From the IMG/VR virus record IMGVR_UViG_642979322_000008: a stretch of 39,386 nt of DNA. One strand, written 5' to 3'. A model generated the notes under the pieces. The model was not told where the DNA came from, did no database searches, and saw nothing but the letters and a program-made list of their open reading frames with translations. The position numbers were made by a program, and so were the translations under genes. Origin of the DNA: a virus (lineage: Duplodnaviria > Heunggongvirae > Uroviricota > Caudoviricetes). This document shows, one piece after another, positions 7,644 through 36,301 of this stretch; position 1 is the stretch's first letter, and the number at the start of each line of letters is the position of its first letter.

Positions 7644-8195
7644 ATGATGAAATTACAACCCATGGGGAGAAAAGGCCGTGCACCCGCTCATGTTCGCGCA
7701 TGGACACCTGAAGAAGATGCGCTGCTGATTGCGCTTTATCCATCCACCCCGGTTAAGGATATTGCTGTCAGGATAAAAAGAAGTTTCTGGGGTGTACATA
7801 ACCGGATTGTTTTATTACGCGGTACTTACCCGGAGTTGCTCAAATGCAAACGCCTCAGATTTAAACCTGATGAAGATAAATTTATCCGAAAAAATGCCAG
7901 GACGATGACCGGTAAGCAAATAGGAGAATATCTGGGGCGAGACCGGGATTCTGTCCACAATCGGGCGCGATATATTGGCGTAAGCATGAAAAAATACGGA
8001 GAATTACTGCCTTTTACCCGCATACCTGACGATGATGTTCATCTTATTCGTGAATTACGGGATGCTGAATCACCACGGCGTCTTACCTTTAGGGAAATCG
8101 GCGAGAAATTTGAATTATCCGAGGGCACGGTGAGTTTTATTTATCACCGTCGTCGGACTGCCGAAGATGTTGTATTACGGGAGTTAACGACATGA
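7644..8195 (+). CDS. hypothetical protein with three tandem Myb/SANT-like HTH repeats
   Basis: Three internal repeats: WTPEEDALLIALY...VHNRI, FKPDEDKFIRKNA...VHNRARYIG, IPDDDVHLIRELR...TVSFIYHRRR. Confidence 0.55.
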   Translation: MMKLQPMGRKGRAPAHVRAWTPEEDALLIALYPSTPVKDIAVRIKRSFWGVHNRIVLLRGTYPELLKCKRLRFKPDEDKFIRKNARTMTGKQIGEYLGRDRDSVHNRARYIGVSMKKYGELLPFTRIPDDDVHLIRELRDAESPRRLTFREIGEKFELSEGTVSFIYHRRRTAEDVVLRELTT

Positions 8196-23459: not shown

Positions 23460-23825
23460 ATGAGCGGAAAACAGTATCAGGGTACGGCCACTATCCGTGT
23501 GAACGGTCAGGAATACGAGACGCTTGAGGGGGCTACATTTTCTCCGTCTGGTTTTGAACGTGAAGTGGTGAAAGGCGCGAAAGTCTATGGTTACCGCCAG
23601 AAACCACGTGAAGCGACGCTGGACTGCAAATTTCCGGCAGGCGGAGAAGGTTCACCAGCCGCCGATGAAATCAACAACTGGACTGCGGTCACTATCGAGT
23701 TTGTGGCGGATACCGGCGAAGTCCACATGATGACGAAGGCCTGGAGCAGTGAACCGGCCTCGCTTGACGGTGGCGGGGAGATCTCCGTGAAGTTCGCCAG
23801 CGCCTCCAGTACCCGTGTTCAGTGA
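23460..23825 (+). CDS. tail tube protein (Mu M-like)
   Basis: 121-aa ORF after sheath. Confidence 0.75.
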   Translation: MSGKQYQGTATIRVNGQEYETLEGATFSPSGFEREVVKGAKVYGYRQKPREATLDCKFPAGGEGSPAADEINNWTAVTIEFVADTGEVHMMTKAWSSEPASLDGGGEISVKFASASSTRVQ

Positions 23826-24316
23826 TCAGGAAAAATAAAATGACCACACGTAAGAAAAAAACGGCAGTTTCCGAGGCAGCCGTGATGGAGGCAATCCGGG
23901 AAGCACTTGAGGGGGCTGATCCACGCACTGCCGGGCTGACAGAGCAACTGGCAAAGGGATATGTGGATCTGCTTGATGGTCTGCCGTTTGGTGAGACCCG
24001 TGAATATCGTGTCACGTTCCGGGAACTGACAGCGAAAGACAGTATTGACGCAGAAGCAGAAGCCGAGCGCGTGGTGGAGACAAACAATGGCCCGATGCTG
24101 ATAGCGTCTCCGTCGTTACGCGGTGTTGCACTGCTGCGCCGTCAGATTGCCGCAGTGGGAGACATTGAAGGTCCGTTGTCACCCCGTCAGATTGGACAGT
24201 TAAGCGAGCGCGATCTCTCCCGCCTGATGGCAGCGGTCAGCCTGCTGGATACCGCGCTTGCCGGAAAGCTGGCAGCTGACCGGGGGCGATCAGGCGCAGT
24301 GTCGGGATCAGATTGA
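23822..24316 (+). CDS. tail assembly chaperone; possible frameshift extension to 24440
   Basis: 164-aa ORF between tube and tape measure; overlapping out-of-frame ORF 24258-24440 fills the gap to the tape measure start. Confidence 0.55.
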   Translation: MIRKNKMTTRKKKTAVSEAAVMEAIREALEGADPRTAGLTEQLAKGYVDLLDGLPFGETREYRVTFRELTAKDSIDAEAEAERVVETNNGPMLIASPSLRGVALLRRQIAAVGDIEGPLSPRQIGQLSERDLSRLMAAVSLLDTALAGKLAADRGRSGAVSGSD

Positions 24317-24442
24317 AGAAGCGGCAATTATCCTGGGGATGGTGACAAAAAGCGGTCCGGAATGGGCGCTTAACCTCCCCCTGTCGCAACTTTACCGGCA
24401 CTGCCGACAGACAGAAAAAATCATCAGAACGAAGCAGTAAGT

Positions 24443-26518
24443 ATGGCCCGAAATCTCAGAGCATCTCTGATAGTTGATTTGCTCGGCAATATCTCAGCCA
24501 AATCCCGCCAGTGGTCACAGGAGCTGGGGGCATTCTCACGCTCCGGCCAGGCGGGGCTGGGTGGCCTGGGAAATGCTGCCCGCCGTGCCGGGCAGGAAAC
24601 AGATGTACTCGGAAGCAGGATGCAGCGCACGCTGGCCGGGGTGCGGGGCAGTATCCGCCATGTCACTTCTGATTTTGACCGTCTTCAGGGCAGTATTACC
24701 GGCACCATCGGGCGGATCAGCAATCTTTACGGAATGCTGGCCGGTGGTGCTGCTGTATATGGCTTTAACCGGGGATTTATTCGCCCGGCAGCGGAGATGG
24801 AAACCTATATGATTCGCCTGAACTCCCTTTACAAAGGGGATCGGGCGAAAACTGATGATGTCCGCAGGTGGGCAATACAGAATGCGAAGGAAACCACCTG
24901 GGGGCTGGCTGGCGTCATGCAGGAATATACGTCCAGTCTGGGCTTTGGTATGAGTGACAGGGAGGCCCGAAATTTTGTCACCATGCTTCAGGATCAGGGT
25001 GCCGTGGGCGGCTGGTCACTGTCCGATGCACAGGGGGCATCCCTGCAACTGAAACAGATGTATGCAAGAGGCAGTATTCAGGCGGCGGATGCAAATATTC
25101 TTGCCACCTACGGCATTAATGCCTACCGCGTGCTGGCTGATCGTCTGGGTGTGGACCAGAAAGTGGTCAGAAAACTTGGTGAAAAAGGGCTGCTTGGGCC
25201 GGACAGTATTCGCCTGTTATTTCAGACGCTGGCGGAACAGGCCAGGGGAGCACAAAAGGACGCAATGAATTCCTGGAGTGGCCTGACGGCCATGATGGGT
25301 GACGTCTGGGACCAGTTTGCCCGGGATGTGATGGACAGTGGGCCATTTGAAAAACTGAAGGGTAATCTCAGGGGATTTCTTTCATGGGTTGACAGTGCCA
25401 AATCTGATGGCAGTTACCATTCCCTGGCGGAAAGCACGGCATCAGCCATGAACCAGGGCTTTGAGTATGCCCGTGATGCAGTGACTGGGTTTTATCAGGC
25501 GATCAGAAAGGTACGCGACACGCTTCAGGCTCTGCGGGATGCGGGCTATGGTGATGCGCTGGATCGCATTGGTCAGGGGGCACAGACCGCCGCGAAATAC
25601 CTGCTGTACATGTATCTCGCCACCCGTGCCCTGAAAATGGCGCGGGCTGTCGGAACGGGGATTATACGTCCGGGTGCTGCATTGCTGGGATACGGATTAT
25701 CAGCGGCGGCCTTCCTGACCTCACCTTTCCGGCGCTCTCCTCCGGCCGGAACACCACCAGGCACATATCAGGGACGAGGGCAACGTTTTATAAACTTTCT
25801 TACCGGGGTAAATCCGGCAGCCGTTCAGCCAGTACTTGTAACAAACTGGCCCACAGGAGGACTGTCCGGCACCGGCGCGACCGATACATCCTCAGGCGGA
25901 CGTCAGGGGCGGGGCCGCAGGAAACGCGGACCGGGGCGCGGAAGACCGGTCACGCCTCCCCTGCCACCGTCCCCAGTGCCACCGTCTCCCTCTTCTGGTG
26001 GGGCAGGGTTCTGGGGGCGCATGATGGGGCGCGCCGGTGGGTTACTTTCGTCTGTCGGTAGCCGCATGGGGCTGGGGCGTTTCTCCGGCTTTTTCCGCAG
26101 TGCCGGTGGACTGGCCGGCCGGCTGGGTGGAGGTGCCCTGTGGGCTGGCGCGATGGCAGCCCCGGTTCTGCTGGATGGCAGCGCCAGTGCCACAGACAAG
26201 GGAGAAGCGGTCGGCTCTCTTGCAGGCAGTATTGCCGGTGGTGCGCTGGGGGCGGCAGCCGGACCTGTGGGGATTGCCATTGGTTCTACGGTGGGCAGCT
26301 ATCTCGGTAACTATCTGGGGGGATGGCTGACTGAAGCCTGGCAGAAATTACGGGGCAGTGATGATGAAAGCAGTGGACAGGCGGTACAAAAAGCCTCTGC
26401 CCGTGTGGAGCTGGTTGCCCCGGAAGGGTGGCAGGCTCGCAGTATTGATATTGATGACACGTCCGGTCACGGACTGGATGTGAATGTCTGGAACGGAGGG
26501 AATTATGGCCTCTGGTGA
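24443..26518 (+). CDS. tail tape measure protein
   Basis: 691-aa ORF, Ala/Gly-rich with a Pro/Arg-rich low-complexity segment and a Gly-rich C-terminal part. Confidence 0.75.
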   Translation: MARNLRASLIVDLLGNISAKSRQWSQELGAFSRSGQAGLGGLGNAARRAGQETDVLGSRMQRTLAGVRGSIRHVTSDFDRLQGSITGTIGRISNLYGMLAGGAAVYGFNRGFIRPAAEMETYMIRLNSLYKGDRAKTDDVRRWAIQNAKETTWGLAGVMQEYTSSLGFGMSDREARNFVTMLQDQGAVGGWSLSDAQGASLQLKQMYARGSIQAADANILATYGINAYRVLADRLGVDQKVVRKLGEKGLLGPDSIRLLFQTLAEQARGAQKDAMNSWSGLTAMMGDVWDQFARDVMDSGPFEKLKGNLRGFLSWVDSAKSDGSYHSLAESTASAMNQGFEYARDAVTGFYQAIRKVRDTLQALRDAGYGDALDRIGQGAQTAAKYLLYMYLATRALKMARAVGTGIIRPGAALLGYGLSAAAFLTSPFRRSPPAGTPPGTYQGRGQRFINFLTGVNPAAVQPVLVTNWPTGGLSGTGATDTSSGGRQGRGRRKRGPGRGRPVTPPLPPSPVPPSPSSGGAGFWGRMMGRAGGLLSSVGSRMGLGRFSGFFRSAGGLAGRLGGGALWAGAMAAPVLLDGSASATDKGEAVGSLAGSIAGGALGAAAGPVGIAIGSTVGSYLGNYLGGWLTEAWQKLRGSDDESSGQAVQKASARVELVAPEGWQARSIDIDDTSGHGLDVNVWNGGNYGLW

Positions 26519-34261: not shown

Positions 34262-36301
34262 ATGACGTCCAAATGGGTTCAACTATCATCAATGCCCGGA
34301 AACTTTACTGTTAAAGTTTCCGGTGGTACAGCGGCATTTCTTGAGGCTCCCTTTCCTCCGGCCGAAACAAAAGGAGGAATGACATTTGCTGACTGTCTCA
34401 TCAGTTTTAATACACGGGATTGCCTGTGGGTAAGGCCAGTATCCGGTGATCCGAGTGTGGAAATTACCGGAGCGGGTATTGGTGCGGTCATTCCGTTAAG
34501 TGCTGATGTTGCCGGTACTGCTGAACCGTCAGACTGGGATAATGCTGAAACACATACCCGTCCGTCAGGAAATGAAACTGCTTCCAGCTCCCCTTCCTGG
34601 TATTACGTGGTGGTTCTTGCTGGTCAGTCAAACGGTATGGCTTACGGTGAAGGTCTGCCACTGCCGGAGACATATGACCGCCCCGAACCGCGTATTATGC
34701 AGTTAGCCCGTCGCAGTACAGTCACGCCGGGAGGTAAAGCCTGTCAGTATAACGACATCATTCTGGCCGACCACTGTCTGCATGATGTGCAGGATATGAG
34801 TGGAAAAAATCACCCGAAAGCGGATGTGGCTAAAGGGCAATATGGCACCGTGGGTCAGGGGCTTCACATTGCCAAAAAACTGCTGCCGTTTATTCCGGCA
34901 GATGCGGGGATTCTGCTGGTTCCCTGCTGCCGTGGTGGTTCTGCATTCACGGCGGGTGCTGACGGCACGTACAGTGACAGCACGGGTGCTTCAGAGGACT
35001 CAGCCCGCTGGGGTGTGGATAAGCCGCTGTATAAGGACTTAATCAGCCGGACAAAAGCGGCACTGGCGAAGAACCCGAAAAACCGCCTGCTTGCTGTGGT
35101 GTGGATGCAGGGCGAGTTTGATATTGATGCGAAGCCGACGGAGCATTCCGCGCTGTTTCTGGCGATGGTGGAAAAATTCCGCGCAGACCTGGCTGAACAG
35201 GCGGAACAGTGTACCGGTGGCAGTGCTGCTGGCGTTCCGTGGATTTGTGGCGATACCACGTATTTCTGGAAACAGAAAAATGAACCGGCATACCAGGCAA
35301 TCTATGGCGGCTACAAAAACAAAACAGATAAAAACATTCATTTCGTTCCATTAATGACAGATGAAAATGACGCGAATGTACCCACCAACAATCCGGCAGA
35401 AGACCCGGATATTGAATCCATTGGTTATTACGGCTCAACGTGGCGTAACAGTGCCGCCACCTGGACATCTGCGGACCGGGCCAGCCATTTCAGTTCATGG
35501 GCACGTCGTGGGATTATTTCCGACCGTCTGGCCACGGCAGTTCTGACTCATGCGGGGCGAACCACAGTAAAAGCCGATGTTCCATCTTCTGAAACTGAAG
35601 CACCAGTGCCGTCACCTTCAGAAACTGAAGCAGTAACCACAACACTGCTGTCTTATCGTGTCAGTGAGTCAGAAGGAAATCTGAAAGCCCAGGGCTGGGA
35701 GCCGGCTGGCGGTAAAGCTGAAATTATCAGTGATGCAGGAGGCACAGGTGGTAAGGCAATGAAACTGACCAAGGAAACAGGTAAATCATCCTGGTATCTG
35801 GATCATGATGCCGGTACTGGTGCTGAACTGCTGAAAAATGGTGGTTTAATCAGTTGTCGTTTTAAAGTACCTGGCGACCTGGTGGCAAACCAGTATGTCA
35901 TGGGGCTTTACTGGCCGGTTTCCTCTCTGCCGCAGGGTGTCACCCTGACAGGGGATGCAGGGAATAATCTGCTGGCATCGTTCTACATCCAGACAGACGC
36001 AAAAGACCTGAATGTGATGTACCACAATGCAAAAGTGGCAACAAATAACCAGAAACTGGGAACCTTTGGTGCATTTGATAATGAATGGCATACGCTGGCC
36101 TTCCGTTTTGCAGGAAATAACAGCCTTCAGGTTATTCCGGTTATTGATGGTCAGGATGGTGCCGCGTTTACCCTGACGCAGTCACCAGTAGGAACTTTCC
36201 CGGTGGACAAACTCCGCGTAACGGATATCACAAAAAATGCAACTTACCCGGTGCTGATTGACAGCATTGTGGTGGAAGTGAAAAAAGCGGTAACAGAATA
36301 A
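34262..36301 (+). CDS. SGNH/SASA-family carbohydrate O-acetylesterase-like protein (prophage NanS-p-like) with additional N- and C-terminal domains
   Basis: 679 aa; GQSN motif (VVVLAGQSNGMAYGEG) typical of sialate O-acetylesterase-type SGNH hydrolases; Ser/Thr/Pro/Glu linker (SETEAPVPSPSETEA) before a C-terminal beta-rich domain. Confidence 0.55.
   Translation: MTSKWVQLSSMPGNFTVKVSGGTAAFLEAPFPPAETKGGMTFADCLISFNTRDCLWVRPVSGDPSVEITGAGIGAVIPLSADVAGTAEPSDWDNAETHTRPSGNETASSSPSWYYVVVLAGQSNGMAYGEGLPLPETYDRPEPRIMQLARRSTVTPGGKACQYNDIILADHCLHDVQDMSGKNHPKADVAKGQYGTVGQGLHIAKKLLPFIPADAGILLVPCCRGGSAFTAGADGTYSDSTGASEDSARWGVDKPLYKDLISRTKAALAKNPKNRLLAVVWMQGEFDIDAKPTEHSALFLAMVEKFRADLAEQAEQCTGGSAAGVPWICGDTTYFWKQKNEPAYQAIYGGYKNKTDKNIHFVPLMTDENDANVPTNNPAEDPDIESIGYYGSTWRNSAATWTSADRASHFSSWARRGIISDRLATAVLTHAGRTTVKADVPSSETEAPVPSPSETEAVTTTLLSYRVSESEGNLKAQGWEPAGGKAEIISDAGGTGGKAMKLTKETGKSSWYLDHDAGTGAELLKNGGLISCRFKVPGDLVANQYVMGLYWPVSSLPQGVTLTGDAGNNLLASFYIQTDAKDLNVMYHNAKVATNNQKLGTFGAFDNEWHTLAFRFAGNNSLQVIPVIDGQDGAAFTLTQSPVGTFPVDKLRVTDITKNATYPVLIDSIVVEVKKAVTE

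Follow-up and report, generated by a model that had tools for sequence, protein, structure and literature searches.

A probable -2 frameshift in the tail assembly chaperone gene of an Escherichia coli Mu-like prophage, orthologous to that of the Mu gp41/FS-gp41 pair

The stretch of DNA considered here (hereafter the window; 39,386 nucleotides, 53% G+C) is a Mu-like prophage of Escherichia coli, and in its tail region Pfam and RefSeq together give the gene order sheath, tube, chaperone, tape measure and DNA-circulation protein (DNA_circ_N). The features assigned below all lie on the plus strand. The tail tube gene (23460..23825; Pfam Tail_tube PF10618, E 3.3e-31), which RefSeq names 'phage tail tube protein' in E. 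coli E2865, adjoins the chaperone gene on its upstream side, and the tape measure protein gene occupies 24443..26518 (Pfam TMP_3, E 1.9e-18; RefSeq 'tape measure protein').

The chaperone ORF had been placed at 23822..24316 in the original prediction, and an ORF with these ends is indeed found both in the ORF list and in the raw sequence (GTG start, 164 aa, TGA at 24314-24316). Its start, however, is more likely the ATG at 23840, giving 158 aa, because a Shine-Dalgarno-like AGGA (23828..23831, read from the sequence) lies 8 nt before this ATG and because RefSeq chooses the equivalent ATG in E. coli E2865. The gene at 23840..24316 is identified as that of the 0-frame tail assembly chaperone, a homologue of Mu gp41, by Pfam, PHROG, tblastn and a RefSeq CDS with the same coordinates: the Gp41_Mu profile (PF23746) is matched over its full length with an E value of 7.6e-32 (110 bits, cut-off 27) and phrog_508, 'tail assembly chaperone', with an E value of 1.6e-48, while a match to Phage_TAC_7, the chaperone family of P2 E and Mu 41, lies just above threshold (E 1.2e-5; 25.7 bits, the cut-off being 25). 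Near the 5′ end of the gene, seven consecutive A residues (23855-23861, in AAG AAA AAA ACG at 23852-23863) encode a KKK stretch that is absent from Mu gp41; A runs such as this can be slippery for ribosomes or for RNA polymerase.

A second, out-of-frame ORF (24258..24440; TTG start, 60 aa, TAA at 24438-24440) overlaps the end of the chaperone gene, in a frame that is open from 24228. It fills the gap to the tape measure gene as the original prediction had it, its stop codon lying 2 nt upstream of the tape-measure ATG at 24443. Since 23822 mod 3 = 2 and 24258 mod 3 = 0, this frame is +1, or equivalently -2, with respect to the chaperone, and the earlier statement that the extension frame is not the -1 frame agrees with this arithmetic. 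There is no obvious Shine-Dalgarno sequence before the tape-measure ATG in the region 24425-24445 (the upstream sequence reads …GAACGAAGCAGTAAGT), and with a spacing of 2 nt there might be some translational coupling into the tape measure gene, though only the rare frameshifted ribosomes would terminate at that point. Promoter-like sites were not found in the region, and two terminator-like matches are at the level expected by chance. The ORFs of the minus strand and of the third frame that lie under the region, which give no noteworthy Pfam match (best E 0.042, below threshold), were dismissed as shadow ORFs without a significant Pfam match.

Taken from the sequence of the window alone, neither the overlapping ORF nor the motif goes beyond chance. 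Starting from random positions in the window, one meets no stop for at least 41 codons in about 36% of cases, the +1 frame stays open for at least 41 codons beyond the stop in 41 of the window's 117 long stop-to-stop ORFs, and the octamer GGGGGCGA occurs once where 2.3 occurrences are expected. Since neither the open frame nor the octamer is improbable by itself, the case for recoding must rest on homology and comparison.

The obvious comparison is with phage Mu, in which a programmed -2 ribosomal frameshift that links gp41 to FS-gp41 was reportedly described by Xu, Hendrix and Duda in 2004. The Mu reference used here is the updated record AF083977.1, in which Mu_41 is the chaperone CDS and Mu_56 is a two-piece joined CDS carrying the GenBank note 'verified -2 translational frameshift in PMID 15469818'. 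Reviews likewise describe -2 frameshifting in Mu decoding and give an efficiency of ~2.2%, an in vivo estimate; in a purified cell-free system, a 2025 preprint measured 14% with the bare Mu site, its reporters being unable to separate -2 from +1. An exact look-up identified the -2 product of Mu, with the junction ERGGEW, as UniProt P0DJY4 ('Probable tail assembly protein FS-gp41') and as GenBank UIW09302.1; the +1 version of the Mu product had no record in the same exact-sequence look-up over ~15 billion proteins.

It had been suggested at the outset that the overlap might hold a slippery sequence or a rare-codon pause, and that the Mu equivalent would be informative. The overlap does contain CGG_GGG_CGA (24281..24289), with its rare CGA codon, and the same nine bases stand in the same register in Mu (1858-1866 of the Mu locus), where the site is annotated as -2 (GAA CGG GGG CGA GUG in Mu, GAC CGG GGG CGA UCA in the window). 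Within the site of the window, a run of five Gs spans 24282-24286 and the core GGGGCGA, which proves invariant among relatives, spans 24283-24289. From the site to the 0-frame stop there are six codons in Mu and eight in the window, and the extension that follows a -2 shift is 51 codons long in both. The two extensions are 52% identical over 46 aa (BLASTP, E 9e-21), about as conserved as the chaperone bodies, which are 49% identical by tblastn, and both match phrog_12783 (E 1.6e-37 for the window, E 1.8e-29 for Mu). The position of the gene is also the same, between tail tube and tape measure, with an extension that ends just before the tape measure gene. The differences are that the chaperone of the window has 158 aa and a longer basic N-terminus where that of Mu has 144 aa, that the extension stop lies 2 nt from the tape-measure ATG in the window and 14 nt from it in Mu, and that Mu, unlike the window, has an AGGA before its tape-measure start. 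A further difference is one of status: the Mu site is annotated as verified, whereas the frameshift of the window is a predicted one and its long product appears in no annotation.

How far the site extends beyond these two phages was asked of nine phage records and of 34 bacterial loci that an alignment of chaperones had retrieved, the ends of the chaperone genes being checked in all frames. A search of genome contigs with a single chaperone protein had returned no locus; it was the alignment-based repeat that gave the 34. The conservation counts are based on 38 loci, which represent 36 distinct sequences. GGGGCGA is present in the same register in all 36 distinct relatives while its flanks vary, and the hosts or phages concerned, which belong to many genera of Gammaproteobacteria, include Escherichia, Klebsiella, Raoultella, Pluralibacter, Pasteurellaceae, Aeromonas, Plesiomonas, Vibrionaceae, Shewanella, Marinobacter, Marinomonas and an Alteromonadaceae phage. 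When 19 diverse sequences are aligned without gaps, the seven columns of GGGGCGA are the sole stretch of adjacent invariant columns among 101. For two of these positions, coding gives no explanation. The first G of the core is the third base of the preceding codon and is constant across CGG, AGG, GCG, TCG, GAG and GGG; the C of CGA is invariant even though replacing it by A would leave Arg unchanged in the 0 frame (CGA to AGA) and Gly unchanged in the extension frame (GGC to GGA). Selection here acts on the nucleotides themselves, as would be expected of a recoding signal, and the invariance of the heptamer across many genera shows that the unusual -2 site of Mu is not peculiar to Mu.

The relatives also narrow down where the shift can take place. 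In three of them (L007, L028 and L030), the +1/-2 frame opens just 6 nt before the G run, and in Xenorhabdus a 0-frame UAG stop stands directly after the CGA codon (GAG GGG CGA UAG); because of these late-opening frames and this early stop, the shift is confined to about 14 nt that include the motif.

The bases around the core are less uniform. The base that precedes it is a G in 32 of the 36 relatives, and five relatives have either four Gs in all (Sodalis, Pantoea persica and two Xenorhabdus) or an A or C before the core. The four-G copies read GCG, TCG or GAG followed by GGG_CGA (L011 2076, L013 2378, L022 2342 and L024 1169), and in these copies the homologous extension is still open. In addition, the length of the G run itself differs, with four Gs in an Erwinia tracheiphila locus (L012) and seven in another (L010). 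In the Erwinia tracheiphila copy (at about 2340-2500 of the locus) the G4 run fuses chaperone and extension in frame (…PERGEWLQCRNEIEQ…), and this copy can make the long form only, because the run places both parts in one frame. The same in-frame fusion is seen in two 187-aa Mu-like proteins from Logan assemblies (P0002 and P0008), which read ERGEW and ERGQW. Real mutation, the decay of a prophage or a sequencing error in the homopolymer could each account for such fusions.

The original prediction had named lack of conservation of the second frame in relatives as evidence against a frameshift; instead, the frame is conserved in every intact relative that was examined. In the +1/-2 frame, the extension has 46-52 codons in 37 of the 38 loci and 40 codons in one truncated copy, and in relatives it ends at or just past the start of the tape measure gene. 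Among intact relatives with an identifiable site, this frame is open for 37-47 codons past the 0-frame stop, as against anything from 1 to 48 codons for the -1 frame. Conservation of the extension starts exactly at the slip site, with G-D or G-E. Across nine independent pairs of relatives, substitutions fall at codon positions 1, 2 and 3 of the extension frame in the numbers 78, 37 and 127, and a comparison of the window with the 86%-identical Mu-like insert in Stx phages, made over the non-overlapping part, gives 3, 2 and 9; the latter comparison amounts to 4 amino-acid changes in the extension frame as against 10-11 in each of the other two frames. The bias of substitutions towards third positions therefore argues that the extension frame is translated and under purifying selection.

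Sequence comparison thus establishes that both parts of the chaperone locus are homologous to their Mu counterparts, that the site is identical in the two phages and conserved at the nucleotide level, and that the second frame is under purifying selection. The locus also has the properties of a G/GT-type pair, namely a position between tube and tape measure and a second frame that is open and under purifying selection while lacking a conserved start of its own. Overall, the Gp41_Mu and phrog_12783 matches, the identical Mu site and the relatives support the original prediction that this is a pair made up of a chaperone and a frameshift-extended chaperone, and they support the placement of the locus in a known frameshift type, verified experimentally in Mu, of which the copy in the window appears to be an unannotated orthologue. 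With considerable confidence, then, we regard the locus as the orthologue, in a Mu-like prophage of E. coli, of Mu genes 41 and FS-gp41, at which -2 slippage would make a 200-aa chaperone.

The course of events envisioned on this reading is as follows. Most ribosomes would translate from ATG 23840 to the TGA at 24314-24316 and release the 158-aa product, and a small fraction would slip back by two bases on CGG_GGG_CGA. The slip would take place with peptidyl-tRNA-Gly on GGG 24284-24286 and the slow CGA codon in, or awaiting entry to, the A site, and the run of five Gs would allow the tRNA-Gly to re-pair perfectly with GGG 24282-24284. Decoding would then resume at GGC (24285), proceed through the 51 codons of the extension (24285..24440; GDQAQCRDQIEEAAIILGMVTKSGPEWALNLPLSQLYRHCRQTEKIIRTKQ) and end at the TAA at 24438-24440; phrog_12783, identity to Mu, the pattern of substitution and the kept length all support the assignment of this segment. 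The predicted long product consists of the chaperone body, one extra Gly and the C-terminal extension, and is computed from join(23840..24286, 24285..24440) to have 200 aa and a mass of ~21.8 kDa. A pause at CGA in the A site is a plausible trigger for the slippage, because CGA is a rare codon (5.5% of the Arg codons in the genes of the window) and a slowly decoded one. Its slow decoding is due to inosine-adenosine wobble. For the prophage itself, the occurrence of slippage, its -2 direction and its efficiency are what we infer by homology to Mu.

A downstream RNA stimulator, be it a stem-loop or a pseudoknot, was not found at this locus. Single-sequence folds reveal no unusually stable structure downstream of the site (z = -0.78 for the window and -0.75 for Mu), RNAalifold detects 0 shared pairs downstream of the site among 19 relatives, and Rfam gives no match in the region. 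It is also important to stress that the motif by itself is not diagnostic. GGGGCGA stands in the same codon register inside two other genes of the window, at 7935 (CTG GGG CGA) and at 35555 (GCG GGG CGA), and because the +1/-2 frame closes there after 15 and 4 codons, respectively, no meaningful extension results; slippage at either place would yield merely truncated by-products. None of the other in-frame GGG_CGA sites in the window lies near the end of a gene or opens a long frame to the next gene.

Several alternatives to -2 ribosomal slippage can be envisioned, of which the most serious changes only the direction. The same site could give rise to the same two products by a +1 shift, in which the peptidyl-tRNA-Gly moves from GGG to GGC while CGA is awaited; the long form would then have 199 aa and no extra Gly (…ADRGDQAQ…), and its predicted junction would be …LAADRGDQAQCR (R-G-D) in place of the …LAADRGGDQAQCR / …AADRGGDQAQCR (R-G-G-D) of a -2 shift. 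Coordinates cannot tell the two directions apart, the reporters of the 2025 preprint do not separate them either, and an invariant GGG followed by a rare CGA resembles the 'hungry-codon' sites at which +1 shifts occur. The four-G variants, in addition, cannot re-pair perfectly after a shift of -2. However, Mu, which has the same nine bases, is on record as a verified -2 case and its database product carries the extra Gly; the G before the core, which is kept in 32 of 36 relatives, is needed by a -2 slip only; and the wobble position would presumably become a C:C mismatch after a +1 slip. A +1 shift in the prophage is accordingly improbable in our view, and where the original prediction had left the direction as +1 or -2, homology makes -2 the most likely one.

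The direction may nevertheless vary across the family, because re-pairing after a -2 slip is imperfect in the four-G variants, and the copies of Sodalis, Pantoea persica and Xenorhabdus may use a +1 shift or an imperfect -2 shift. This leads to a tentative and rather doubtful proposal, that GGGGCGA alone constitutes a minimal recoding element that is independent of structure, with a direction that differs among relatives: -2 with five Gs, and +1 or imperfect -2 with four. In such an element the G run could also pair with the anti-Shine-Dalgarno sequence, the slow CGA codon being the second part. Such an element would be conserved across very distant gammaproteobacterial hosts. If this were true, the loci of this family would offer a natural series from which to learn why slippage in bacteria is -2 in one case and +1 in another.

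A second alternative moves the slippage from the ribosome to RNA polymerase, which might add two Gs to the G5 run or remove one of them, so that the long product would be translated from an edited mRNA. The site contains a homopolymer, two inserted Gs would specify the same protein as a -2 ribosomal shift, and the G4 and G7 runs of the Erwinia tracheiphila locus and of L010 show that the length of the run evolves. Five Gs are nonetheless short for productive transcriptional slippage, for which typical runs are about 7-9 A or T. Moreover, the invariant CGA would have no role, and the literature describes the Mu case as ribosomal frameshifting; we consider editing of this kind very unlikely.

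Just as hard to sustain is the view that the second ORF, of 60 aa, is a small gene in its own right that starts at TTG 24258. This ORF is labelled 'hypothetical protein' in many E. coli records and found under that name on 360 contigs, and the record of phage D108 has a separate gene, 41.5, at the position of the extension. A start at TTG 24258 was rejected, since it lacks a Shine-Dalgarno sequence and is not conserved. In Mu, L007, L028 and L030, no more than 6-9 nt separate the opening of the frame from the G run, Mu has no listed ORF of at least 30 aa with an ATG, GTG or TTG start in that frame, and it is precisely from the slip site onwards that the extension is conserved. Finally, a chance open frame, with the 126-nt gap as a non-coding spacer, would fit the abundance of frames of this length in the window, an octamer that is not over-represented and a gap that RefSeq leaves unannotated, yet it is next to impossible to reconcile with an extension that is homologous to that of Mu, shows a third-position bias in its substitutions and keeps its frame and length in 37 of 38 relatives.

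Other tail assembly chaperones offer a model for what the two products might do. The G and GT proteins of phage lambda follow the same logic, with two products that have a common N-terminal part, are made at a fixed low ratio and come from the gene that directly precedes that of the tape measure protein. Both are absent from the virion, and in the functional model for lambda the chaperone acts on the tape measure protein and the extension on the tube protein. Lambda differs in being a siphovirus and in using a -1 shift on the classical heptamer G_GGA_AAG. Sequence similarity between the chaperone of the window and lambda G/GT was not detected, and the roles of binding given here to the short and long products are transferred by analogy only: the part shared by both would form a coat on the tape measure protein, the rare extension would bring in the tail tube subunit, and under a lambda-type model the two products would arise in a fixed ratio. 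Phage P2, with its E and E+E' proteins, is a contractile-tailed phage whose chaperone is encoded at the same position. It uses a -1 shift on a T-rich site. The match of the window's chaperone to Phage_TAC_7 is marginal, and the GenBank note in the Mu record draws the same parallel with E and E+E' of P2.

Over the segment 23460-24700, the window matches the chromosomes of numerous E. coli strains at 100% identity, among them E2865 and strains of O26 and O103. The chaperone region is carried by 228 of the 5,426 complete E. coli genomes searched, 184 of them at an identity of at least 99%; many of the listed carriers are Shiga-toxin-producing O26 and O103 strains. The exact 158-aa chaperone is found on at least 1000 contigs, and an exact look-up over about 15 billion proteins returned no record of the long product of the window in either its -2 or its +1 version. 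In the RefSeq annotation of E. coli E2865, the 126-nt stretch that corresponds to 24317-24442 of the window (L044 3858-3983) is unannotated, and the locus tags jump from RS12980 to RS12990.

The surrounding genes of E2865 form a Mu-type set, which comprises the Mu transposase, Gam, Mor, lysis genes, head genes, sheath, tube and a tail assembly protein, followed by the tape measure, a DNA circularization protein, baseplate genes, invertase and tail-fibre genes, Com and Mom. Three genes of this copy, a portal-like gene (DUF935), a minor head gene and the tail sheath gene (L045 14538-17434 and 21950-23451), are flagged 'frameshifted' by RefSeq, and the same three are intact ORFs of 524, 436 and 500 aa in the window; the window and the E2865 record differ by small indels. 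RefSeq also places a 'tRNA-OTHER' at L045 17434-17514, and in the window ARAGORN finds no tRNA.

Tools for the prediction of frameshifts mostly seek -1 heptamers, and for such tools an invariant GGGGCGA is a modest but useful point. The main value of the present analysis lies in annotation: at join(23840..24286, 24285..24440), this E. coli prophage would encode a second, 200-aa form of its chaperone, which is presumably needed for tail assembly.
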